A DNA stretch of 64,000 nucleotides from an uncultured bacterium (GCA_946407375.1 CAMJNS010000004.1:3480-67479); one strand, 5' to 3'; positions 10,146 through 23,273 are shown, counted from the first letter of the stretch. Numbers and translations: made by a program. The notes: generated from the letters alone by a model not told the origin.

Positions 10146-10213
10146 AAGCCTGATTGGATTCAGGATTTACTTCGATTGTGCCTTTCTTGCCCTGCTTGAG
10201 TTCTGGCAAGCAA
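10146..10213 (-). repeat. partial copy of nfnB-like 3' end
   Basis: Matches 21081-21148 with 1 visible mismatch; preceded by the same J-motif junction (..CTACAATAAAAACTAAAAAAT|AAGCCTGATTGG) as the copy at 8361. Confidence 0.85.
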
Positions 10214-10424
10214 GATAGATATATTTGATGAAGATGTTACAAAAGGAGTTGTTAAGAGTTTAAACTTTATTATTCCATCAGTTGAATATAAGGGAGGAAC
10301 AAGCAATTTTTTTGCTGCTCGTTGTATTGACATAGACAGAGACGGAATTACAGAATTAGTATTTGAAGGTGATTATGATAATGAAACAACAAAAAACTCT
10401 GCTATTATCGTAAAATTGAAATAA
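10200..10424 (+). pseudogene. orphan 3' gene fragment (DxDxDG-loop containing), no start codon
   Basis: Open frame from an in-frame TGA (10197) to TAA (10422-10424): ..IDIFDEDVTKGVVKSLNFIIPSVEYKGGTSNFFAARCIDIDRDGITELVFEGDYDNETTKNSAIIVKLK*. No ATG/GTG/TTG. Followed by a terminator. Confidence 0.3.
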
Positions 10425-11089: not shown

Positions 11090-11479
11090 CGTCATTGCGA
11101 GCAGTCGTAAGACTGCGTGGCAATCCAGATATTTACTATTTCAAATTATAGAATTTTCCAATATAAATCTACCCAATTAGGATTTAGGCTTTCGATAAGT
11201 TTCAATTTATATTTTCTTGATCTAGCTTTAATTTGTTTTTCTCGTTCAATGGCATTATTGATATTGTCGTATTCCTCAAAATAACCTAACTTATCGACAG
11301 AATATTTTTTAGTAAAACCTTCATATAGTTTATTTTTATGTTCATAGACTCTACGTATTAAATCAGAAGTTGCTCCTGTATAAAGAGTTCCATTTCTTTT
11401 ACTGAACAAGATGTAAATATAACTGTTTTTATTCATATTATTTTTATCTAGATTGCCACGCCTTCGGCTCGCAATGACG
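11090..11479. mobile_element. GIY-YIG cassette bounded by inverted hairpin repeats (candidate small mobile unit)
   Basis: Left end CGTCATTGCGAG-CAGTCGTAAGACTG-CGTGGCAATC (11090-11126). Right end GATTGCCACG-CCTTCGG-CTCGCAATGACG (11451-11479), in inverted orientation. The unit sits between the two remnants of one Rpn-like gene. Confidence 0.4.
11146..11436 (-). CDS. GIY-YIG nuclease family protein (small stand-alone, UPF0213/YhbQ-like)
   Basis: 96 aa; SYIYILFSKRNGTLYTGATSDLIRRVYEHK ... EREKQIK. Confidence 0.88.
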   Translation of the reverse strand: MNKNSYIYILFSKRNGTLYTGATSDLIRRVYEHKNKLYEGFTKKYSVDKLGYFEEYDNINNAIEREKQIKARSRKYKLKLIESLNPNWVDLYWKIL

Positions 11480-11703: not shown

Positions 11704-11898
11704 GTAAATAAAACCTATGAAAATTTTTGGGATTGCCACGTTACTACGCATACTACGTATGCTTGTAATGACATATGGCTTGCGGTTTCACAATGACGGT
11801 TACGGTAGAGACTAAGGTTTTCTTTGATTCGGTCATCCCTCCGACTTGCTACGCAAGTCACCTCAGCGACTCGCTGACCTCCTGTCGCTCGCTTGCAC
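11704..11898 (+). repeat. ~195-bp direct repeat, copy 1 (copy 2 at 20381-20573)
   Basis: Copies differ only by a 2-nt indel and one substitution that I can see; the repeat contains a GATTGCCACG hairpin module plus further short hairpins. Confidence 0.9.
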
Positions 11899-11952
11899 TC
11901 CCAACCTCCTGTTGGTCGTCTAATCTCTTATCTCTGCTCTCTTTAAAAACTG

Positions 11953-11987
11953 GATTGCCACGGCTTCTACGAAGCCTAGCAATGACG
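11953..11987 (+). repeat. hairpin repeat element (GATTGCCACG-GCTTCTACGAAGC-CTAGCAATGACG)
   Basis: Conserved ends with an element-specific inner 5-6 bp stem. Confidence 0.8.
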
Positions 11988-12051
11988 AAATGGCAGAGAC
12001 TATCTTTATCGACAATAAAAACAATAACTACCGACTACAATAAAAACATAT

Positions 12052-12091
12052 AAAAAAATAGGTTAAGCTGAAAGCTTAACCTATTTTTTTT
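12052..12091. terminator. bidirectional terminator just downstream of the displaced nfnB 3' fragment
   Basis: A7-ATAGGTTAAGCT-GAA-AGCTTAACCTAT-T7. Confidence 0.65.
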
Positions 12092-12096
12092 ATTAC

Positions 12097-12320
<224 letters not shown>

Positions 12321-12349: not shown

Positions 12350-15034
12350 ATGTCTGATTTGTCTGTTTTTTATATATTAGATCTTTCTGAAAGTATGAAA
12401 GGTGAAAAACTTGATATACTTAATCATACTGTTGAAGAATGTAACGAAACCTTATTAGAATTAGCAAATGAAAAGAACGCTGAATTAAAAGTGGCAATGA
12501 TGACATTCTCAGATGGCTGTGACTGGATAACTCCACACGGACCAGAACCTATAGAAGATTTTGCTTTTAATTATTTTCAAAATACAAGTGGCTTGAGTAA
12601 TCTAGGTATTGCATTATATGAATTAAATAAAAATATTACAGACATAAATTTTTATAATATTTCTTCAAAAGATTACTTACCAGTAATAATTATTATAACA
12701 GATAAAGACAATATAGATAATTATGAAAACATTCTAAAATTTGTTAAAACAAATAATATTTATGAAAACTCTATAAAAATAGCTTATACCATAGGCAACA
12801 ATCAAAATACAGAATTATTATCTTATATTACAGATAATAAAAATTCAATAATTACTAAAAGCAATGAGAATTTTAGGGAAATTATTAAAATATTTGGAAA
12901 AACTACAAGTCAAAATAATAAAGAAATAATAAAAAATCAAATAAGAAAATTAATTCAAAAAAAGCAGTATGAAGAAGCAAAAGAATTAACCAAAGAATTA
13001 GGTAACGAAAAAGAATCTTATGAAAATGTAATTCTTGGTTGTATGTATATTGTTGGCAAAGGTGTGGAAAAGAATTACGAAGAAGCAGTTAAATATGCCA
13101 AGTTAAGTGCTGAACAAGGAAACCCTCTAGGACAATGCTTGCTGGGGCAATGTTATTATTTTGGTAATGGTGTGGAACAAAATTATGAAGAAGCTTTTAA
13201 ATACTTCAAGTTAAGTGCTGAACAAGGAGATTCAGCAGGACAAATGCGGTTAGGAATTTATTATCTTTATGATAATGGGATAGAACAAAATTACGAAGAA
13301 GCTTTTAAATATTTCAAGTTAAGTGCTGACCAAGGAGATTCAGATGGACAATGGGCTCTTGCTAAATATTATTATGAGAACAGTGTGAAACAGAATTACG
13401 ATGAAGCTTTTAAATATGCCAAGTTAAGTGCTGAACAAGGAAACCCTCTAGGACAATGCTTGCTGGGGCAATGTTATTATTTTGGTAATGGTGTGGAACA
13501 AAATTATGAAGAAGCTTTTAAATACTTCAAGTTAAGTGCTGAACAAGGAGATTCAGATGGACAATGGGTTCTTGCTGAATATTATTATGGTAACAGTGTG
13601 AAACAGAATTACGAAGAAGCAGTTAAATATGCCAAGTTAAGTGCTGAACAAGGTAATTCAAATGCACAATGTTTGTTGGGGAAATGTTATTATTTCGGTA
13701 ATGGTGTAGAGCAAAATTACGAAGAAGCTGTTAAATATTTCAAATTAAGTGCTGACCAAGGTAATTCAAATGCACAATGGGCTCTTGCTGAATATTATTA
13801 TGGTAATGATGTGGAACAAAATTATGAAGAAGCTTTTAAATATGCCAAGTTAAGTGCTGAACAAGAGAATTCTCATGGGCAATGCTTGTTGGGGCAATGT
13901 TATTTATTTAGTAATAGTACAGAACAGAATTACGAGGAAGCTTTTAAATTATTCAAGTTAAGTGCTGAACAAGGAGATTCAGATGGACAAAAGTGGTTAG
14001 GTATTTGTTATCTTAATGGAATTGGTATAAAACAGAATTACGAAGAAGCTTTTAAAAATTTCAAGTTAAGTGCAGAAAAAGAAAATGCTCACGGGCAATG
14101 CTTGTTAGGGCAATGTTATTATTATGGGAATGGTGTAAAACAGAATTACGAGGAAGCTTTTAAATATTTCAAGTTAAGTGCAGAAAAAGGACACGCTCAC
14201 GGACAATGCATGTTGGGACAATGTTATTATTATGGTAATGGTGTTGAAAAGAATTACGAAGAAGCCTTTAAATATTTTAAGTTAAGTGCGGAACAAGGAG
14301 ATTCAGATGGACAAAAGTGGTTAGGAATCTGTTATTATGATGGTGATGGTGTAGAAAAGAATTATGAAGAAGCTTTTAAATATGCCAAGTTAAGTGCTGA
14401 ACAAGGGAATTCTCATGGGCAATGCTTGTTGGGGCTATGTTATTCTTTTGGTAATGGTGTAAAACAGAATTATGAAGAAGCTTTTAAATACTTCAAATTA
14501 AGTGCTGACCAAGGGAATAAACTAGGACAACGTTATGTTGGATTCTTATGTTACTATTATGGACAAGGCATTAAAGCAAATAATGAGGAAGCTTTTAAGT
14601 ATATGAAGTTAAGTGCTGACCAAGGGGATAGCTTTTCACAATATTGGATTGGATCAAATTATTATGATGGTTTTAATGTTAAACAAAATTTTGAAGAAGC
14701 TTTTAAATACTTAAAACTCAGTGCTGACCAAGGAGAAAATCTAGCGCAATATAATCTTGGTAAGATGTATTATAATGGCGATGGAATACCTAAAAATTAC
14801 AAAGAAGCATTTAAATATATGAAGTTAAGCGCTGACCAAGGTAATGCTGATGGACAATATGAAGTTGGAAAAATGTATTTAGATGGCATAGGTGTAAAAA
14901 GAAACCAGGAAGAAGGAATAAGATACATTAAATTAAGTGCAGATCAAGGTAATTTAACAGCAAAAGGGTATTTGATAAGATCAAATATAACCAAGGGTTT
15001 CTTAAATGCAATTGGTAATATTTTTAAAAAATGA
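12350..15034 (+). CDS. vWA domain protein fused to ~18 Sel1-like (SLR) repeats
   Basis: 894 aa. N-terminal vWA with MIDAS DxSxS (FYILDLSESMKG) and a VIIIITD strand. From ~aa 205, an array of 35-36-aa units (NYEEAFKYFKLSAEQGDSDGQ..LG.CYY.GNGVEQ). Confidence 0.85.
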   Translation: MSDLSVFYILDLSESMKGEKLDILNHTVEECNETLLELANEKNAELKVAMMTFSDGCDWITPHGPEPIEDFAFNYFQNTSGLSNLGIALYELNKNITDINFYNISSKDYLPVIIIITDKDNIDNYENILKFVKTNNIYENSIKIAYTIGNNQNTELLSYITDNKNSIITKSNENFREIIKIFGKTTSQNNKEIIKNQIRKLIQKKQYEEAKELTKELGNEKESYENVILGCMYIVGKGVEKNYEEAVKYAKLSAEQGNPLGQCLLGQCYYFGNGVEQNYEEAFKYFKLSAEQGDSAGQMRLGIYYLYDNGIEQNYEEAFKYFKLSADQGDSDGQWALAKYYYENSVKQNYDEAFKYAKLSAEQGNPLGQCLLGQCYYFGNGVEQNYEEAFKYFKLSAEQGDSDGQWVLAEYYYGNSVKQNYEEAVKYAKLSAEQGNSNAQCLLGKCYYFGNGVEQNYEEAVKYFKLSADQGNSNAQWALAEYYYGNDVEQNYEEAFKYAKLSAEQENSHGQCLLGQCYLFSNSTEQNYEEAFKLFKLSAEQGDSDGQKWLGICYLNGIGIKQNYEEAFKNFKLSAEKENAHGQCLLGQCYYYGNGVKQNYEEAFKYFKLSAEKGHAHGQCMLGQCYYYGNGVEKNYEEAFKYFKLSAEQGDSDGQKWLGICYYDGDGVEKNYEEAFKYAKLSAEQGNSHGQCLLGLCYSFGNGVKQNYEEAFKYFKLSADQGNKLGQRYVGFLCYYYGQGIKANNEEAFKYMKLSADQGDSFSQYWIGSNYYDGFNVKQNFEEAFKYLKLSADQGENLAQYNLGKMYYNGDGIPKNYKEAFKYMKLSADQGNADGQYEVGKMYLDGIGVKRNQEEGIRYIKLSADQGNLTAKGYLIRSNITKGFLNAIGNIFKK

Positions 15035-15071: not shown

Positions 15072-18000
15072 ATGGCAAACGACTTAGTTAAACAAAATAA
15101 ACTTATAGATAATTTAAATAAAATAGCATACACCATAGATAAAGCATATATGGCAAAATTAGATTCTGAGTATGCAGTTATACCTTTTGATGTTTTACAC
15201 AATAATAAAGATAATAGTGTTTCCTATAAACATAATATTAGAGCCTTAAAAATAGACAAGTGGGTTTTTGATAGAGATGAAAACCCTGGCAAATGTTTTA
15301 AAAACGTATTAAATGCCTTTGCAGATGGTGATCATACATTAGCACTTGTAGTAAAAAGAACTCCAACAGAAACACAAATGTATTTTGTTGTTAAAAATGA
15401 AGGCGAAGGTAGAGCATTAACTACTAAAACCAATCTTAATCTGCTAGAAGATACTATTACTGGCAATTTTCAGGGAACAAAAGCAGAAAAAATAATTAAT
15501 GAAAATAAATTAGAAGATATTTTTTCTTTTGAAAAAAACATTAGTTCTATTGCCTTAATGACTAATACTCCATCAGAATATACAGAAGATTATATCGGTC
15601 AAGGTATAGACAAGCTTTTAAATGGCGTAGTTCCAGAAAATGAATTTGAAAGTTATACTGTTGTTTTTCTTGCTGAATCCTTATCTCCAGAAAGTTTAAT
15701 GCAAATATTGTCTGGTTATGAAGAAATGGCTACAGCTATAAGCCCATTTGAACAACAACAATTTCAAATAGGAAAATCGACAACTTCTACAAAAGGAGAA
15801 AGCTATTCTGAAACTATTGGTGAAATGACTTCTTTAACCAATTCAGAAAGTACTAGTGATTCTATTTCTAAGACACATTCTGTAAATATAGGTTTAAACG
15901 GTGGAATTAATTATGGTAATACTGAGAATCGCTCATTAAATTTAAGTAAAATTTGTGATGATATTAAAGATAATTGGGAAAAAAATAAAAGTAAAGGTTG
16001 GAAAACAGCTGTTATATCTGTAGCAGGAAGTGGTTTGATAACAGCTGTTATCAATAGTTTTAGTACAAATGTTGGTTTATCTGGTGGTTACGGATATAGC
16101 TGGGGTAATACAAAAACTGACACAACAGGTGTATCTAAAACCGTTGGCAACAACAATAGTGAGACAACAGGAACAAGCACTAGCCTTGCATTAGGAGAAA
16201 GCGAAAACACTACTTTTTCATATAAAAATTATAAAATAAGCAATATGCTTGAAAAGCTTAAACTTACAATGGACCGAATAAACAAAAGCAAGGCAACAGG
16301 CTTATGGAAGTTTTCCACTTATATTATGTCTGAAAAAGCTAAAACAACAAAAAATATAGCCAATATTTTAAAAGGCATTACCCAAGGGAAAAATTCATAT
16401 ATAGAACCTGCTTTTATTCAAGAATGGACAAATTTAAATCCTAAAAAAGAGATTTTTTCGGAAATAAGAAAATATTTACATTTTTTTACTCATCCTGTTT
16501 TCTTTACTGCAGACCAGGAACTGAATAACGCAATGGCTGTAACGCCAACTTCTTTTGTTGCTACAGACGAATTATCAAATGTTATAGTTTTCCCTAAAAA
16601 ATCATTACAAGGATTGCCTGTTTTGCAGGGAACACAATTTGGTCGAGAACCTCATTCTTTATTAGATGCAAAATACGATTTGCTTTTAGGAAAAGGTTAT
16701 CATATGCATCAAACTTATCAAAAGCAAGAAATTTCTATTTCTTCAAATGATCTGCTTAACCACACTTTTGTTACAGGCTCAACTGGTGCTGGTAAATCTA
16801 ATGCTATTTATCAACTTTTGGAACAAACAACAAAATTAGGAGTTCATTTCCTTGTTATAGAACCAGCTAAGGGGGAATATAAAAGCTTTTTCGGTAAAAG
16901 AGATGATGTAAAAGTTTTTGGAACAAACCCCTTATTAAAAGATATTCAATTATTAAGAATAAATCCGTTCAGTTTCCCTATAGAAAATACTCATATTTTG
17001 GAACATTTAGACAGACTTGTAGAAATATTCAATGTTTGCTGGCCTATGTATGCTGCGATGCCTGCTGTTTTAAAAGATGCCATAGAACAGGCTTACATAA
17101 ATGCTGGTTGGGATTTGACCAAATCTGAAAATAAATATGACAACAGAATTTTCCCGACATTTGCAGATGTTTTGAAAGAAATAAAAAATGTAATGAATAA
17201 TAGCGAATACTCTGATGAAAATAAGGGTAATTATTCTGGAGCATTACAAACGAGATTGAAATCTCTTACTAACGGTATAAACGGTCAGATATTCTCAAAT
17301 GATTCTATTTCTGATGAAGAATTATTCGATAAAAATGTAATAATAGATTTAAGCAGAGTTGGCTCTACAGAAACAAAAGCTTTAATAATGGGACTTTTGA
17401 TTTTGAAACTACAAGAACACAGAATGGCTAGTCCTGAAATTAACTCTGAATTAAAACATATTACTGTTATTGAAGAAGCTCATAATCTATTGAAGAGAAC
17501 ATCTACAGAGCAGGTTTCCGAAAGTTCAAATCTTTTAGGAAAATCTGTAGAAATGCTTGCAAACGCAATAGCAGAAATGAGAACTTATGGTGAGGCTTTT
17601 GTTATTGCTGATCAGTCACCAGGATTACTTGATATGTCTGTAATCAGAAATACCAATACAAAAATAATATTAAGACTTCCTGATTATTCTGACAGAGAGT
17701 TAGTAGGAAGAGCTGCTGGCCTTAACGAAGAACAGATAATTGAACTTGGAAGACTTGAAAAAGGTGTAGCAGTAATTAGACAGAATGATTGGCTTGAACC
17801 TGTTTTGTGCAAAATTGATAAATTTAATGAAAGCAAATATTCCAATAATAATAAATCTAACAATAGTTTTAATCTGTCTAATGATAGCATTAATGAATCT
17901 GTATCTAAAGCTCTTGTGGAAGCTATAATGACAGGTAAAATCAATAATATTGAAGAAAACGTATATGAGCTTAATGAATTAAAAGAACTTATAATAAAAT

Positions 18001-18323
18001 CAAATCTTGAGACTGCTATAAAATGTGAATTTATTAATTGTCTTTTAATAAAAGACCACAATTTATCTGCTTTAACAACTCTTTGTTATGACTTTTTTCA
18101 TGCTTCAAAAGCGGTAGAATTAGCAAAAAAATGTGGCAATATTGAAAGTTGGAGTCAGTGCTTAACTTCAAATCTTGTTCCGAATGTAGAAAGTTATAAT
18201 AATGAGCAAATAAACAGATTGTTAGCTTTAATTGTTATTGAAATCAAAAACAGAGACCCTTTTTACAATAAACTCTTTTGTCGATTTACTGAGGTTTATA
18301 AAGAAAGGGGTAGTATTTTATAA
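15072..18323 (+). CDS. large HerA/FtsK-superfamily (DUF87-like) P-loop ATPase with novel N-terminal region and one hydrophobic helix
   Basis: 1083 aa. Walker A FVTGSTGAGKSN, Walker B HITVIEEAHNLL, FVIADQSPGLLD and NTNTKIILRLP. S/T/G/N-rich segments (aa ~230-390) flank TAVISVAGSGLITAVINSF. Confidence 0.75.
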   Translation: MANDLVKQNKLIDNLNKIAYTIDKAYMAKLDSEYAVIPFDVLHNNKDNSVSYKHNIRALKIDKWVFDRDENPGKCFKNVLNAFADGDHTLALVVKRTPTETQMYFVVKNEGEGRALTTKTNLNLLEDTITGNFQGTKAEKIINENKLEDIFSFEKNISSIALMTNTPSEYTEDYIGQGIDKLLNGVVPENEFESYTVVFLAESLSPESLMQILSGYEEMATAISPFEQQQFQIGKSTTSTKGESYSETIGEMTSLTNSESTSDSISKTHSVNIGLNGGINYGNTENRSLNLSKICDDIKDNWEKNKSKGWKTAVISVAGSGLITAVINSFSTNVGLSGGYGYSWGNTKTDTTGVSKTVGNNNSETTGTSTSLALGESENTTFSYKNYKISNMLEKLKLTMDRINKSKATGLWKFSTYIMSEKAKTTKNIANILKGITQGKNSYIEPAFIQEWTNLNPKKEIFSEIRKYLHFFTHPVFFTADQELNNAMAVTPTSFVATDELSNVIVFPKKSLQGLPVLQGTQFGREPHSLLDAKYDLLLGKGYHMHQTYQKQEISISSNDLLNHTFVTGSTGAGKSNAIYQLLEQTTKLGVHFLVIEPAKGEYKSFFGKRDDVKVFGTNPLLKDIQLLRINPFSFPIENTHILEHLDRLVEIFNVCWPMYAAMPAVLKDAIEQAYINAGWDLTKSENKYDNRIFPTFADVLKEIKNVMNNSEYSDENKGNYSGALQTRLKSLTNGINGQIFSNDSISDEELFDKNVIIDLSRVGSTETKALIMGLLILKLQEHRMASPEINSELKHITVIEEAHNLLKRTSTEQVSESSNLLGKSVEMLANAIAEMRTYGEAFVIADQSPGLLDMSVIRNTNTKIILRLPDYSDRELVGRAAGLNEEQIIELGRLEKGVAVIRQNDWLEPVLCKIDKFNESKYSNNNKSNNSFNLSNDSINESVSKALVEAIMTGKINNIEENVYELNELKELIIKSNLETAIKCEFINCLLIKDHNLSALTTLCYDFFHASKAVELAKKCGNIESWSQCLTSNLVPNVESYNNEQINRLLALIVIEIKNRDPFYNKLFCRFTEVYKERGSIL

Positions 18324-18988
18324 TGTTTGAAAGTATTGGTAAAATAGTAGAAGTAGCTGAGACAGCAGCAAAAGAAGTTGCTGCTAATGTTGAAAAGATT
18401 GTTCCCGAAAGTGGTATTAGTCTAAAAGAAGCTGATGAATACTGGAACAAGTTTTTTGCTCCTAAAAACAATATAGAAAAGAAATCTACTGATAGTTTCT
18501 CTAATAACTATTATGATGATAACAATGAAGTTTATCGAAAAGGTAATGATTTGGTTCCCAATCATGATTATGAAATAAACGGATACAAATATCATACTGA
18601 TGAAATTGGTAGAATATCTTCGGCAGAGGGTAATTTACATTTAAAAGATAGAGAGGGGCGTCTTCCAATAAAAGATTCTATTGAAAACATTGGGAAAGGC
18701 TATGAATTACCTAATGATGATAGAGGGCATCTTATTGCCGACCAGTTTGGCGGCTCTAATGGCTTAGAAAATCTGATTCCACAAGATGCAGAAGTAAATA
18801 GAAAAGATTTTATGAATTTTGAAAACAAACTTGCTAATGAAGTTAAGAATGGTAATGAAGTTTATATAAAAAATGAGCCTAATTATGAAGGTAATTCTAG
18901 AAGACCAAGTGAATTTATTGTAACTTATTCTGTGAATGGCACTGAAAATATAAGGATTTTCCCAAATGGCAAGGAGATTAATAAATGA
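18323..18988 (+). CDS. DNA/RNA non-specific endonuclease toxin (Endonuclease_NS_2 type, EsaD/YeeF/YqcG-like) with short helical N-terminal region
   Basis: 221 aa; NDDRGHLIADQFGGSNGLENLIPQDAEVNRKDF motif; start overlaps the ATPase stop (TAATG at 18321-18325). Confidence 0.7.
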   Translation: MFESIGKIVEVAETAAKEVAANVEKIVPESGISLKEADEYWNKFFAPKNNIEKKSTDSFSNNYYDDNNEVYRKGNDLVPNHDYEINGYKYHTDEIGRISSAEGNLHLKDREGRLPIKDSIENIGKGYELPNDDRGHLIADQFGGSNGLENLIPQDAEVNRKDFMNFENKLANEVKNGNEVYIKNEPNYEGNSRRPSEFIVTYSVNGTENIRIFPNGKEINK

Positions 18989-19314
18989 AAAATATAATGA
19001 ACGAAGAAATATACCAAAAAATATGCGATATTTTAGTTAATGTGTTGCCTGAAAAATGGGAAAATATAGTTTTTAAAGCCGAATATGGTGAAGAAAGCTA
19101 TGAAATGAAATATTGGGTCGATTCAGGAAATGGAGAGCTTAAAGACTGTTTTGAGTTAGCTGTTGTTCCCAAATCACAGATGGTGAAAACTTTTATAGCT
19201 TTAAATAAAGTTATTGCACCAGAACGAAATGCATTAGAACCAAAGCACAAATGGAAAATAATGACACTAAAGGTTTCTTCAAAAGGGAAATTCAACGCTG
19301 ATTTTGAATATTAA
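18985..19314 (+). CDS. cognate immunity protein, DUF600 (EsaG/YezG)-like
   Basis: 109 aa; ATGA overlap with the toxin stop; AAGGAG RBS. The size and the WENIVF..EYGEESYEMKYWV...KWKIMTLKVSSKGKFNADFEY pattern resemble DUF600 immunity proteins. Confidence 0.55.
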   Translation: MKNIMNEEIYQKICDILVNVLPEKWENIVFKAEYGEESYEMKYWVDSGNGELKDCFELAVVPKSQMVKTFIALNKVIAPERNALEPKHKWKIMTLKVSSKGKFNADFEY

Positions 19315-19358: not shown

Positions 19359-19796
19359 TTGAAAGTATATTTGGATAATTGTTGTTTCAATAGACCTTAT
19401 GATGACCAATCTTATATCAAAATATCATTAGAATCAAAAGCCAAGCTTTATATACAGAATTTAATAAGAAAGAAGAAAATAGATTTAGTTTCTTCATACA
19501 TGATTCTATATGAAAATGGTCTAAATCCATTTTCTATGAGGAAAAATCCAATAAAAGAATTTATCAATAAAAACACATCTCTTTTTATTCCTTATGAAAA
19601 ACATGTTATAATTGAAGAAATGGCATTAGAAATAATGAATACAGGAATAAAATATAAAGATGCCTGTCATGTCGCTTGTAGTTTGTTAGGACAATGTTCT
19701 TATTTTATTACTACAGATAATAGGTTACTTAAATACAAAAATAGTAATCTCAAACCGATTAATCCTATTGATTTTGTAAGAAATTTGGAGGAATAA
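19359..19796 (+). CDS. PIN-domain ribonuclease toxin
   Basis: 145 aa; TTG start with AGGAG RBS. Acidic residues are placed as in PIN (VYLDNCCF, ..EE.., KDACHVA, ITTDNRLL). Confidence 0.65.
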   Translation: MKVYLDNCCFNRPYDDQSYIKISLESKAKLYIQNLIRKKKIDLVSSYMILYENGLNPFSMRKNPIKEFINKNTSLFIPYEKHVIIEEMALEIMNTGIKYKDACHVACSLLGQCSYFITTDNRLLKYKNSNLKPINPIDFVRNLEE

Positions 19797-19797
19797 A

Positions 19798-20031
19798 ATG
19801 GAAGCTAATACTGTTGAAATTATGAATAAAGGTATGAAATGCTTACTTGATAATCTAGGAATAGTAGAAGCAGAATATTTTATTTCTACTGTTATTAGGG
19901 AAAAATTTGATTACACTAAGTGGCAACAAGAGTATTTTGATAAAATTCCACCAAATGAATTAAATGAGAAATTAGCTGATTTTGCTAAAAATTACAAATT
20001 TGAGGGCAATCCAGAAGTATTACTCAAATAA
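19798..20031 (+). CDS. small partner protein of the PIN toxin (putative antitoxin, downstream position)
   Basis: 77 aa; starts 1 nt after the PIN stop; LGIVEAEYFISTVIREKFDYTKWQQEYF pattern recalled from small proteins paired with this PIN subfamily. Confidence 0.4.
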   Translation: MEANTVEIMNKGMKCLLDNLGIVEAEYFISTVIREKFDYTKWQQEYFDKIPPNELNEKLADFAKNYKFEGNPEVLLK

Positions 20032-20194
20032 TTTTTTATTATCTAGATTGCCACGGCGTTTTCAACGCCTCGCAATTGACGCATGACAGAGACCAAGGGT
20101 TTACTCTAGTTCGGTCACCCTCCCTTTTATTACTTCCCTCAAGGGAGGGCTTATGACAATCACACCAACCACAGCCTACGCCAGTAAAACCAAA

Positions 20195-20380: not shown

Positions 20381-20573
20381 GTAAATAACCTATGAAAATT
20401 TTTGGGATTGCCACGTTACTACGCATACTACGTATGCTCGTAATGACATATGGCTTGCGGTTTCACAATGACGGTTACGGTAGAGACTAAGGTTTTCTTT
20501 GATTCGGTCATCCCTCCGACTTGCTACGCAAGTCACCTCAGCGACTCGCTGACCTCCTGTCGCTCGCTTGCAC
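20381..20573 (+). repeat. ~195-bp direct repeat, copy 2
   Basis: See 11704-11898. Confidence 0.9.
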
Positions 20574-20653
20574 GCCGCCATCCTTGGCGGTAGCCCTCTA
20601 GTGGAGGCTTTAGGACAATCACACCAACAACACATAAAATCAATAAAAATAAA

Positions 20654-20952: not shown

Positions 20953-22440
20953 TTATTTCAAGTATTTTTCCTTGAGGTATTTATCCATACCAGCGGCGGC
21001 TCGGCGGCCGTCACCCATGGCAAGAATTACTGTAGCGCCACCGCGAACGATGTCGCCACCAGCGAAGATTTCTTCCATAGAAGCCTGATTGGATTCAGGA
21101 TTTACTTCGATTGTGCCTTTCTTGCCCTGTTTGAGTTCTGGCAAGCAAGAAGGAATCAATGGATTTGGAGAAACGCCGATAGCAACTACTACTATATCTA
21201 CGTCTAGTTCTTCGATTGCGCCTGGGATTTCTACTGGTCTGCGTCTGCCAGAAGCATCTGGTTCACCCAATTCCATCTTCTGCAAGCGAACTTTGGCAAC
21301 TCTGCCGTTTTCGCCAGCGATGTATTCGATTGGGTTGTGAAGAGTCATAAATTCAACGCCTTCTTCTTCAGCGTGTTTGACTTCTTCAAGACGGGCTGGC
21401 ATTTCATCTCTAGAACGTCTGTAAACGATGATTGATCTATCAGCACCAAGTCTCTTAGAGGTTCTTACAGAGTCCATAGCGGTGTTACCACCACCAACGA
21501 CTACAACAACTTTGCCTTTAAGAACTGGAGTGTCAGTGTCTTCACGGTTAGCACCCATGAGGTTTACACGAGTGAGGTATTCGTTAGAAGACATAACGCC
21601 GTTGAGGTTTTCACCAGGAATATTCATGAAGTTCGGGAAACCTGCACCAGAACCAACATAGAAAGCCTTGAAGCCCTGAGCCTTCAAATCATCAAATGTA
21701 GCGGTTTTTCCAACAACGAAGTTCTTTTCGAACTTAACGCCCATCTTAGAAAGGTTGGCAAGTTCCAAATCTACGATTGAGTTTGGAAGACGGAATTCAG
21801 GAATACCATATTTGAGAACGCCGCCGATTTCGTGGAGAGCTTCGAATACAGTTACATCATAACCAGCTTTTGCCATATCGCCAGCAAAAGAGAGTGCTGA
21901 TGGACCTGAACCAACTGCGGCAACCTTGATGCCGTTTTTCTTTTCCATTTTTGGAAGTTTGGGTTCGATGCCGTTTAAGCGTTCATAGTCAGCAGCAAAT
22001 CTTTCAAGATAGCCAATAGCTACAGCTGGTTTCTTCATCTTGAGGTAAGTGCACTTGGATTCGCATTGTTTTTCCTGTGGGCAAACACGACCGCAAACTG
22101 CTGGAAGAGCACTGAATTCTTTTAATGTTGCAGCAGCTTCTTCAAATTCGCCGCGTTCAATGTTTTTAACAAACTTTGGAATGTTAATGCCTACTGGACA
22201 ACCTTCAGTGCAAGGGTGATTGGGGCAATCCATACAGCGGGTTGCTTCTAATACAGCCTGTTCTTTGGTTAAACCAGTGTTAACTTCGATAGTCTGTGAT
22301 TTAATGCGTTCTGCTGGAGCGATTTCGTTCATCTTCACTCTTTCAATAGCAGTGCGTTCTTTCATCGGAGTCTTGTTGCGGAGTTCTTCTCTCCAGGTTT
22401 CTTCTCTGTCTTTTGCAAAAATATCATTCATATCTGACAT
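20953..22440 (-). CDS. nfnB: NADPH-dependent glutamate synthase small-chain family oxidoreductase (NfnB/SudA-type; often annotated gltA/gltD)
   Basis: Two Cys clusters (CMDCPNHPCTEGCPVGINIP; CGRVCPQEKQCESKC). Two dinucleotide folds (VAAVGSGPSALSFAGD; VVVVGGGNTAMD). I prefer ATG at 22440 (MSDMNDIF..), 20 nt after the nfnA stop, over the ORF-track start at 22503. Confidence 0.85.
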   Translation of the reverse strand: MSDMNDIFAKDREETWREELRNKTPMKERTAIERVKMNEIAPAERIKSQTIEVNTGLTKEQAVLEATRCMDCPNHPCTEGCPVGINIPKFVKNIERGEFEEAAATLKEFSALPAVCGRVCPQEKQCESKCTYLKMKKPAVAIGYLERFAADYERLNGIEPKLPKMEKKNGIKVAAVGSGPSALSFAGDMAKAGYDVTVFEALHEIGGVLKYGIPEFRLPNSIVDLELANLSKMGVKFEKNFVVGKTATFDDLKAQGFKAFYVGSGAGFPNFMNIPGENLNGVMSSNEYLTRVNLMGANREDTDTPVLKGKVVVVVGGGNTAMDSVRTSKRLGADRSIIVYRRSRDEMPARLEEVKHAEEEGVEFMTLHNPIEYIAGENGRVAKVRLQKMELGEPDASGRRRPVEIPGAIEELDVDIVVVAIGVSPNPLIPSCLPELKQGKKGTIEVNPESNQASMEEIFAGGDIVRGGATVILAMGDGRRAAAGMDKYLKEKYLK

Positions 22441-22460
22441 AATTTTATTCTCGCTTTCTA

Positions 22461-23273
22461 TTAGAGTTTTGCCTTGGCTTCGTCTTCTTCTGCTTTGTAG
22501 CATCTTAAGCGAGAAAGCATTTCGTCAAAGTCGATCTGGTGAGCGTCAAATTCTGGACCGTCAACGCATGTGAATTTGGTCTTTCCGCCAACGGTAACAC
22601 GACAAGCACCGCACATACCTGTTCCATCAACCATAATAGTGTTAAGGCTGCACTGAGTTGGAACGTTGTATTCTTTAGTCTTGAGGGCTGCAAACTTCAT
22701 CATGATTGCAGGACCGATAGCGATACATTCATCAACTTTTTCGCGCTTCATGACCATTTCAGCACCAACAGTAACATTACCCTTATTACCATAAGAACCG
22801 TCGTCAGTCATTATTATAACTTCATCAGAGTATTTGCGAAGTTCATCTTCAAGAATGATGAGGCTTTTGGTTCTAGCGGCAAGAACAGTGATAACTCTGT
22901 TGCCAGCTTCTTTGAAGCCTCTGACTATTGGAAGCAATGGAGCGTTGCCAACACCGCCGCCAAGAGCCAAGAAAGTGCCGACTTTCTTGATATCAGTTGG
23001 TTTGCCAAGTGGGCCAACCAAGTCAGTTAAACAATCTCCAACTTTCATATCGCAGAATTTAGTGGAAGAATAACCAACTTTTTGAGCGATGAGCATAATT
23101 GTGCCTTTTTCTTTGTCGGTATCGACGATGGTAAGAGGCATTCTTTCGCCCTTTTCGCTGATTCTTAGAATGATGAAATTCCCTGGCTTGTGTGACTTAG
23201 CAATCAAGGGAGCTTCAACGATGAACTTGAAAACGTTTTCTGAAAGCTGTTCTTTTTCAACTATTTTATACAT
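22461..23273 (-). CDS. nfnA: sulfide/dihydroorotate dehydrogenase-like FAD/NAD-binding subunit (NfnA/SudB, PyrK-like)
   Basis: 270 aa; C-terminal 2Fe-2S motif DGTGMCGACRVTVGGKTKFTCVDGPEF; adjacent to nfnB. Confidence 0.85.
   Translation of the reverse strand: MYKIVEKEQLSENVFKFIVEAPLIAKSHKPGNFIILRISEKGERMPLTIVDTDKEKGTIMLIAQKVGYSSTKFCDMKVGDCLTDLVGPLGKPTDIKKVGTFLALGGGVGNAPLLPIVRGFKEAGNRVITVLAARTKSLIILEDELRKYSDEVIIMTDDGSYGNKGNVTVGAEMVMKREKVDECIAIGPAIMMKFAALKTKEYNVPTQCSLNTIMVDGTGMCGACRVTVGGKTKFTCVDGPEFDAHQIDFDEMLSRLRCYKAEEDEAKAKL

Follow-up and report, generated by a model that had tools for sequence, protein, structure and literature searches.

Introduction

Dynamins are known in defence systems such as Eleos, and HerA ATPases occur in defence systems as well. 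Exported polymorphic toxins have as their hallmark a conserved N-terminal tag, a swappable warhead and a SUKH or YezG immunity protein (PMC3482391, PMC3113570); the same Aravind-laboratory papers bring up HerA/FtsK ATPases in the context of type VII secretion systems (T7SS) only (PMC3113570, PMC3482391). Here we describe P0001, a 1083-amino acid (aa) VirB4/HerA-class ATPase encoded next to a deoxyribonuclease (DNase) toxin in a 64,000-nucleotide (nt) stretch of DNA from an uncultured bacterium (GCA_946407375.1, CAMJNS010000004.1:3480-67479), hereafter the window. The ATPase gene occupies positions 15072-18323, as seen in the list of open reading frames (ORFs) and in its translation; this gene, its parts and its cassette neighbours all lie on the plus strand (+).

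P0001 belongs to a widespread, apparently unnamed cassette made up of an upstream partner, the ATPase, a DNase toxin of ~200 aa and an immunity protein; our search of the full-text literature found no description of it. An original prediction, made from the DNA sequence alone, had divided the protein into an N-domain, an insert rich in Ser, Thr and Gly, a HerA-like core and a helical tail. The ORF and all of the peptides quoted in that prediction were found in the translation and the four-part architecture was borne out; its interpretation as a whole is partly supported. New here are measurements of how the insert is built and the finding that modules of the cassette co-vary.

Results

A conserved, beta-prone insertion with two arms

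In both AlphaFold models of P0001, strands at residues 228-238 and 377-385 bracket an insertion (aa 233-376) that consists of 16.7% Ser, 14.6% Thr, 13.2% Gly and 0% Pro. Its two ends, which coincide with the two blocks of the original prediction, form what we call arms. Arm 1 (aa 233-285; 15768-15926) is 38% Ser+Thr, lacks Pro and is net acidic; arm 2 (aa 334-376; 16071-16199), which carries a GYGYSWG motif, is 35% Ser+Thr and 21% Gly and is net basic.

We measured insert anatomy in 226 family members. All of them (226/226) have an insertion between two beta-strands, with a mean length of 154 aa and a range of 42-270. Ser and Thr together make up 32% of the inserts compared to 13% elsewhere in the protein, and Pro 0.5% compared to 3.3% in the core; Gly accounts for 12% and Cys for 0.1%. 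Within the inserts, odd lags gave negative Ser/Thr autocorrelation and all even lags up to 10 gave values of +0.15 to +0.18, while hydrophobic, charged and Gly residues recurred with a period of four positions. These period-2 and period-4 patterns were not seen in shuffled inserts or in the ATPase core. Combining the two periods therefore yields a repeat unit of the form [S/T]-hydrophobic-[S/T]-charged/Gly, which reads as a signature of extended beta structure in which one face would be all Ser/Thr. The mean net charge is -3.0 in the first half of the inserts and +1.6 in the second (-4 and +3 in P0001); half of the family members follow this acidic-then-basic pattern and 11% follow the reverse.

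Arms are also conserved at the level of individual residues. Between close-subfamily pairs whose cores are 0.8-0.9 identical, identity was 0.71 and 0.74 in the two arms, 0.72 in the N-domain and 0.45 in the tip between the arms (core 0.83), indicating that arms diverge at the rate of folded domains while the segment separating them is rich in insertions and deletions. In arm 1, G250, E251, S254, S264, T268 and S270 are invariant or nearly so, and 120 sequences conserve a KTHS-N-G-N motif; in arm 2, Y340, G341, Y342 and G345 are strictly invariant in 120 sequences and the GYGYSWG motif is conserved. The original prediction had allowed that the blocks might be low-complexity filler missing from homologues. 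Invariant residues, slow divergence, and family-wide composition and period 2 instead indicate that the blocks are conserved in homologues, and the conservation of the arms together with their recurring composition and period-2 pattern thus leads us to reject lineage-specific filler. The same prediction described the blocks as similar to one another, a claim of which a weak form survives: the similarity is slight but consistently above that due to composition. In P0001, the Smith-Waterman score between blocks was 49, whereas shuffled blocks scored 36.3 +/- 6.6 (z = 1.9) and reached 49 in 4.75% of cases; z ranged from 0.95 to 5.0 in 20 homologues. A profile-profile comparison scored 20.1 across 22 columns (P = 1e-3), with none of 20 column-shuffled controls above 10.

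A hypervariable tip with a marginally hydrophobic segment

The hypervariable tip of the insertion (aa 286-333; 15927-16070) comprises a charged stretch and a hydrophobic segment. The segment, TAVISVAGSGLITAVINSF (aa 312-330; 16005-16061), is the 19-mer with the highest Kyte-Doolittle (KD) mean in the protein, at 1.58, just below the classical membrane-helix cut-off of 1.6. The prediction of an "only strongly hydrophobic helix" was therefore right in picking out the most hydrophobic 19-mer and overstated in calling it strong. Across the family, the insert contains a 19-mer of KD ≥1.6 in 33/226 members and of KD ≥1.2 in 63/226 (15-28% hydrophobic), and 141/226 have none above 1.0. A conserved 19-mer with KD ≥1.6, as a helical anchor would have, was thus not found among these members. 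Where a hydrophobic core is present, it lies at 0.52 +/- 0.07 of the insert length, leaving arms of ~65 and ~60 residues, and the hydrophobic stretch is glycine-zipper-like.

A metagenome relative (locus L004), whose protein is 89% identical and which occupies the same chromosomal insertion site, illustrates how rapidly the tip changes. On either side of positions 15899-16072 (aa 276-334) the DNA is 86-94% identical to that of L004, but between these flanks no alignment is possible; a Gly/Ala-rich segment replaces the tip there. A frameshift was considered as the source of the differing tip and rejected, since no alternative frame resembles the other sequence. Conservation of the hydrophobic helix among homologues, which the original prediction had put forward for checking, accordingly failed: the helix sits in the hypervariable tip and is absent or different in close relatives. 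Because the tip is hypervariable, rarely hydrophobic and replaced in L004, the helix is best regarded as a lineage-specific tip variant and not as a defining anchor.

Hydrophobic tips are missing altogether (0/33) from loci in which a dynamin gene immediately precedes the ATPase gene, hereafter dynamin-direct loci. These 33 have the longest inserts (median 208 aa), and no strong membrane segment was seen in their ATPase insert or their two upstream genes. By the same three-gene count, a convincing membrane segment is missing in 33/78 cassettes. Together, the patterns of composition, periodicity and divergence suggest that the insert is neither filler nor a conserved membrane helix but a conserved projection of two beta-prone arms whose tip changes quickly.

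Co-variation of modules within the cassette

We compared pairwise similarity matrices of cassette segments across 65 loci by Spearman correlation and scored the agreement of clusters by the adjusted Rand index (ARI). The ATPase tail correlated with the N-terminal 55 residues of the toxin (rho 0.74), compared to 0.18 for core versus tail, 0.20 for tail versus toxin C-terminus and 0.18 for toxin N- versus C-terminus. Cluster agreement likewise gave an ARI of 0.50 for the tail with the toxin N-terminus, versus 0.00. DNA adjacency does not explain this coupling, because the equally adjacent junctions between core and tail and between the two ends of the toxin give only 0.18. Tail and toxin tag thus appear to move as one unit that recombines away from both motor and warhead, and this co-variation makes the tail a probable toxin-docking module.

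The N-domain shows an association of its own. Loci with an N-domain resembling that of P0001 (similarity ≥0.34) have a dynamin and a small membrane protein upstream in 13/13 cases with a called upstream gene; at a fourteenth, L062, no upstream ORF was called. N-domain type thus matches the type of partner encoded upstream. Tails and N-domains assort independently of each other.

Folded domains on either side of the insertion

The N-terminal alpha/beta domain (aa 1-232; 15072-15767) was modelled by AlphaFold with a predicted local distance difference test score (pLDDT) of ~80-95 and belongs to no known family. The original prediction had recognised nothing here, and Pfam is likewise blank: isolated queries of the N-domain (aa 1-235), the tail (aa 930-1083) and the toxin tag returned no credible Pfam match. 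F133, G135 and Q177 are invariant across the family. Between insert and ATPase core lies a confidently modelled middle domain, alpha/beta and beta-rich (aa 377-555; 16200-16736), with G410, G439, W452, H474, P475 and F523 invariant across the family. When the N-half was modelled alone, Foldseek returned one marginal match in the Protein Data Bank (PDB), VirB4 8rtd_g (E = 2e-3, probability 0.97). BBE-like oxidases, AcrB and ESX-3 were set aside (E ≥0.06); they appear to be generic alpha/beta sandwiches.

The N-half also resembles predicted structures of big Bacillus phage proteins more clearly than it resembles VirB4 (E = 1e-6 to 2e-3, ~480-546 aligned columns). These are Gp156 and Gp155 of phage G and proteins of phages JL and Slash (BFVD entries G3MBM2, G3MBM1, S5MSQ0 and U5Q0H6). 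No sequence similarity was detectable for these N-half-like phage proteins in the phage genome collection.

The ATPase core (aa 556-916; 16737-17819) is the most conserved part of the family. Its Walker A (GSTGAGKS, 16776-16799) and Walker B (ITVIEE, 17460-17477) motifs are intact and invariant in the family, and the DUF87/HerA central domain (PF01935) matches aa 549-776 at 53.7 bits, above the gathering cut-off of 23.2; P0001 is thus a member of the HerA/DUF87 clade within the FtsK-HerA superfamily. There is also a short Pfam match to TrwB_AAD_bind around the Walker A region. A sequence-profile search against solved structures returned HerA cores only, with none for N-domain, insert or tail. 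The full-length AlphaFold model (pLDDT 76.9) has as its best whole-protein structural match TrwK/VirB4 of the R388 type IV secretion system (T4SS) (8rtd_O, E = 1.4e-14, ~1000 aligned columns; Foldseek), followed by HerA, Sir2-HerA, DUF4297-HerA and DndH-C. For the ATPase domain alone, Foldseek template modelling scores were 0.75-0.77 with the VirB4 C-terminal domain (4ag5, 4ag6), 0.72 with DndH-C and 0.54-0.56 with Sulfolobus HerA. The HerA-like core of the original prediction is therefore confirmed by the DUF87 match and by structure. So is its helical tail rich in Cys and Asn: the variable C-terminal tail (aa 917-1083; 17820-18320) has confidently modelled helices at 936-1078 and contains 14.4% Asn and 3.6% Cys.

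Neighbouring genes of the cassette

The order of partner, ATPase, overlapping gene of ~200 aa and gene of ~125 aa is held in nearly all of 78 species loci. In the window, the upstream partner (12350-15034) has a probable vWA domain and ~18 Sel1 repeats (Pfam Sel1 x18), with a DLSES motif in the translation; VWA_2 matched with E = 3.4e-4 and 21.6 bits, below the cut-off of 27. This vWA-Sel1 protein stands where most cassettes have a dynamin-like GTPase. Most cassettes of the family begin with one or two dynamin-family GTPases, and the gene directly upstream of the ATPase encodes Dynamin_N at 37/74 loci and Sel1 repeats at four. Other loci place a protein of ~130 aa with a strong C-terminal membrane helix between dynamin and ATPase. 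ORF 11775-12053 was considered as an equivalent of this small membrane protein and rejected, as it could not be aligned and overlaps hairpin repeats. Within the Sel1 array (13046-14959), a 300-nt unit recurs 13 times at intervals of ~108 nt, so that its copies overlap; such repetitive DNA is likely to expand and contract.

Overlapping the ATPase stop codon with its start codon, the DNase toxin gene (18323-18988) encodes 221 aa, with Endonuclea_NS_2 at aa 79-205 (Pfam 3.5e-31). Its conserved N-terminus (aa 1-55; 18323-18487) is a cassette-specific tag. The gene following the ATPase in relatives encodes a protein of 190-250 aa, and its recurrent families are DNases: Colicin-DNase (23), WHH (23), Endonuclea_NS_2 (17) and LHH (12) at 69 loci. 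The N-terminal ~50 aa of these toxins are conserved while their C-termini are swapped among NS_2, Colicin-DNase, WHH and LHH. The immunity gene (18985-19314) encodes a 109-aa YezG-like protein (Pfam 3.3e-9), and the second downstream gene in relatives is SUKH, YezG or DUF6985. Toxin and immunity types pair (ARI 0.78), and both the nuclease end of the toxin and the immunity gene are freely exchanged. With a shared toxin N-terminus, varied C-terminal domains and a matched immunity gene, the cassette qualifies as a polymorphic toxin system.

Further genes accompany the pair. Following the immunity gene, 19359-20031 holds two small genes (145 aa and 77 aa) that are conserved with L004; the 145-aa product has a faint PIN match only (E = 0.017). 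At least 10 related cassettes encode a zincin-like metallopeptidase of ~225 aa (DUF6782/SprT-like) after the toxin-immunity pair (L020:7659-8626, L024:8397-9385, L034:11364-12337, L080:11433-12415 and six more), and in nine of them a ~97-aa protein of unknown family comes next. WYL-domain regulator genes lie just 5' of dynamin genes in several cassettes (L001:4140-5096, L086:618-1544), including that of Lactococcus plasmid pB26B.

A genomic island with repeated borders

The edges of the island are marked by copies of the 3' end of an Fer4_20/Pyr_redox_2 oxidoreductase gene, forming a 171-nt direct repeat (left 12106-12276, right 20962-21132; 97% identical). GC content is ~30% within the island versus 42-47% in the flanking oxidoreductase gene. 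That gene (20953-22503; Fer4_20 + Pyr_redox_2) has three copies of its 3' end (10146-10215, 12106-12276 and 20962-21132; 97-99% identical), which points to repeated insertion of cargo at one site, a site that L004 shares. GC-rich hairpin elements surround the island borders (11451-11479, 11953-11987, 20046-20081 and nearby); they start with GATTGCCACG and end in CAATGAC-like sequence. A pair of 190-nt direct repeats (11712-11901 and 20387-20576) is 99% identical. The host genome encodes Omp85 and is therefore that of a diderm. Of 40 relatives searched, only five had a homologue, even a distant one.

Family size and distribution

An exhaustive search returned 2339 cluster representatives at E ≤1e-30, and one search alone yielded over 249 full-length relatives that are 50-57% identical. 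Relatives occur in species genomes that include Lachnospiraceae, Treponema, Streptococcus sanguinis, S. salivarius, S. suis, Carnobacterium, Bifidobacterium, Paenibacillus, Selenomonadaceae and a planctomycete; plasmids of Lactococcus cremoris, Bacillus, Exiguobacterium and E. coli (IncI) carry relatives as well. The cassette is thus found in monoderms and diderms, and the records examined annotate the family only as 'ATP-binding protein'. Among 50,697 phage genome records, two match the ATPase, both of them short unannotated metagenome pieces; the ATPase is therefore not a phage-borne gene.

Discussion

We lean, by a little, towards viewing P0001 as the hexameric motor of a mobile conflict cassette in which exchangeable modules surround a conserved and intact VirB4/HerA-class core. 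The tail of such a motor would capture the toxin through its N-terminal tag, and ATP hydrolysis would drag the toxin off its immunity protein and thread it through the ring. Pairing of the two arms would raise a long stalk, similar to a beta-hairpin, from the ring's N-terminal face, offering the variable tip to partner proteins or to the membrane, while the N-domain would dock the upstream partner. In P0001, a tip composed of a charged stretch and a marginally hydrophobic segment might at most dip into the inner leaflet and would provide no conserved transmembrane anchor.

Several observations weigh against this model. Residues 236-377 have a pLDDT of 24-50 in both AlphaFold monomer models, so that the stalk has no modelled fold, and the lengths of the two arms, compared as a test of hairpin pairing, were not significantly correlated across the family (rho 0.19, p = 0.13). 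Tail and toxin N-terminus adjoin on the DNA, so that part of their co-variation could come from linkage; significance is also overstated when Mantel and Wilcoxon tests are applied to sequences that are related. Lastly, a dynamin and a small membrane protein, the usual companions of an N-domain of the P0001 type, are both missing from the window.

Other accounts of the insert have to be set against the stalk. The Ser/Thr-rich hairpins could, on ring assembly, enter the cytoplasmic membrane as a beta-barrel pore or pore lining, hydrophobic or glycine-zipper tip first, and serve as a toxin conduit or a lethal pore. A Ser/Thr period of two with a Gly-rich centre recalls the stem loops of beta-pore-forming toxins, and the glycine-zipper-like hydrophobic stretch, where it occurs (63/226, KD ≥1.2), is always mid-insert; many cassettes also have a small protein with a strong membrane helix beside the ATPase, dynamins remodel membranes, and monomer models leave the region unmodelled, as expected if it folds only on assembly. 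However, the stem of a beta-pore-forming toxin alternates strictly between hydrophobic and polar residues, whereas the arms combine a Ser/Thr period of 2 with hydrophobic residues every 4 positions and not every 2, so that the face opposite Ser/Thr is half charged or Gly and not lipid-compatible. Insertion of the arms as a lipid-facing beta-barrel, in line with the membrane-inserting segment imagined in the original prediction, thus finds little support. Moreover, 141/226 inserts have no 19-mer above KD 1.0, the 33 dynamin-direct cassettes lack a hydrophobic tip, show no strong membrane segment either in the insert or in the pair of genes upstream, and yet have the longest inserts, and the P0001 segment, at 1.58, falls under the 1.6 cut-off. 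We consider membrane entry unlikely, and view as a shade more doubtful still an injector in which six Ser/Thr-rich hairpins would form a beta-barrel-like tube: the ATPase would grip the toxin's tag via the tail, strip off the immunity protein, unfold the toxin and drive it along the tube to the outside of the cell, while a dynamin or the vWA-Sel1 protein would deal with the membrane. Quite improbable, in our estimate, is a flexible, disordered entropic spacer between the N-domain and the remainder, with blocks conserved by descent only. Low AlphaFold confidence in both models, low-complexity composition, insert lengths of 42 to 270 aa and sequence conservation that ends at the subfamily would all suit a spacer, but typical disordered linkers do not nearly exclude Pro (0.5%), and the long-range Ser/Thr period of 2 is lost on shuffling, arms diverge no faster than folded domains while the tip does, aromatic/Gly motifs (Y340-G341-Y342 and G345) are invariant, and the acidic-then-basic asymmetry is systematic. 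We give even less credence to arms acting as a prion- or amyloid-like polymerisation element, in which cross-beta stacking between rings would activate the machine after the manner of NLR-type amyloid signalling motifs. Their richness in S/T/G/N/Y, freedom from Pro, period of 2 and motifs of the type [G/S]Y[G/S] (GYGYSWG, for example) fit that idea, as does the operation of HerA-based defence complexes as large assemblies (PDB matches 8wld, 8sub and 8zir). On the other side, partner proteins showed no short motif that would match, although no systematic search was made; the arms are an internal insertion and not a terminal motif; and the charge asymmetry fits intramolecular arm-arm pairing better.

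The output of the proposed motor could be export of the toxin against rival bacteria or release of the DNase in a phage-infected cell. We rate these two as close to balanced, each somewhat short of an even chance, with delivery barely ahead. Delivery is suggested by the arrangement typical of polymorphic toxins, by the likeness of the fold to VirB4 and by the membrane partners that many cassettes encode. An abortive-infection or anti-phage system, in which the ATPase would sense infection and strip the immunity protein from the DNase inside the cell, is nevertheless a serious contender that falls moderately below an even chance. The recurrent effector families are all DNases, and the cassette is unchanged between monoderms and diderms, with Omp85 in the present host. 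It is carried on a conjugative dairy Lactococcus plasmid and on islands, often beside a WYL regulator; HerA ATPases and dynamins are both familiar from defence systems, and in 33/78 cassettes neither the ATPase insert nor the pair of genes upstream contains a convincing membrane segment. Against defence stand the failure of PADLOC models to match any neighbouring gene; the conserved N-terminal tag, swappable warhead and SUKH/YezG immunity that typify exported polymorphic toxins; and a core and N-half nearest to a secretion ATPase, VirB4.

The family is very large and present in well-studied bacteria and plasmids, and the analysis supplies a testable wiring diagram: N-domain with upstream partner, tail with toxin tag, and conserved arms with a variable tip as a structured element. 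Toxin export, if true, would constitute a new delivery route for interbacterial DNases; defence, if true, would be a new coupling of a HerA/VirB4-type motor and dynamin to a restrained nuclease. With either output, the Ser/Thr-rich hairpin would be a structural element without a solved counterpart. Were the tube or injector correct, it would represent a new type of secretion machine common to monoderm and diderm bacteria.

Comparison with known systems

The P0001 family recalls Eleos (LeoA/LeoBC) in that dynamin-family GTPases start most of its cassettes. The window's cassette itself contains no dynamin gene and PADLOC gave no match on its neighbours, so that it does not classify as Eleos; to our knowledge, Eleos has neither a HerA-type ATPase nor a toxin-immunity pair.

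Toxins of the T7SSb (LXG/EsaD-YeeF, with EssC/YukB) and polymorphic toxins (Zhang et al. 2011, 2012) share with the cassette the pairing of Endonuclea_NS_2 with YezG and of HNH/WHH/LHH with SUKH, swappable warheads behind an N-terminal region that is conserved, and an FtsK-HerA-superfamily ATPase alongside. In contrast to T7SSb, Pfam finds no LXG or WXG domain on cassette toxins, EsaA, EssA and EssB genes are lacking, and the cassette also occurs in diderms. EssC/YukB is defined by three tandem FtsK-like domains, two membrane helices and FHA domains at the N-terminus, whereas P0001 has one ATPase domain, no FHA match and no segment of KD ≥1.6.

Resemblance to HerA (archaeal HerA-NurA, Sir2-HerA/Nezha and DUF4297-HerA) extends to DUF87 above cut-off, PADLOC HerA models at E = 1e-18, structural matches 4d2i, 8wld, 8sub and 8zir, and a ring ATPase paired with a nuclease. 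However, the NCBIfam equivalogs NF040819, NF040937 and NF042943 score 39-43 bits versus cut-offs of 800-970, and P0001 has ~550 extra N-terminal residues, including the insert, and a 170-aa tail. Its partner nuclease is a polymorphic-toxin DNase with an immunity protein, not NurA, Sir2 or DUF4297. The neighbours (vWA-Sel1, Endonuclea_NS_2 and YezG, with no PADLOC match among them) are not those of Sir2-HerA or DUF4297-HerA.

VirB4 (TrwK) is the best whole-protein fold match and the sole PDB match of the N-half, and it shares with P0001 a layout of N-terminal domain followed by ATPase. Both often have a small membrane protein gene just upstream, which in T4SS is VirB3. This likeness is one of fold only: AAA_10 scores 16.1 bits in P0001, below the cut-off of 27.5, no VirB4 Pfam family is matched, and the operon contains no other T4SS genes. 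P0001 differs further in its Ser/Thr-rich insertion, its toxin-matched tail, and its dynamin or vWA-Sel1 and toxin-immunity neighbours.

Lastly, NF033849 ('ser_rich_anae_1, serine-rich protein'), whose name is descriptive and which states no function, aligns residues 232-920 of P0001 with positions 470-1151 of its 1163, and so covers the insert from its beginning as well as the ATPase. At 93.5 bits versus a cut-off of 650, P0001 is not a member. Judging from this alignment, a sister subfamily with the same serine-rich plus ATPase layout appears to be already catalogued as NF033849.

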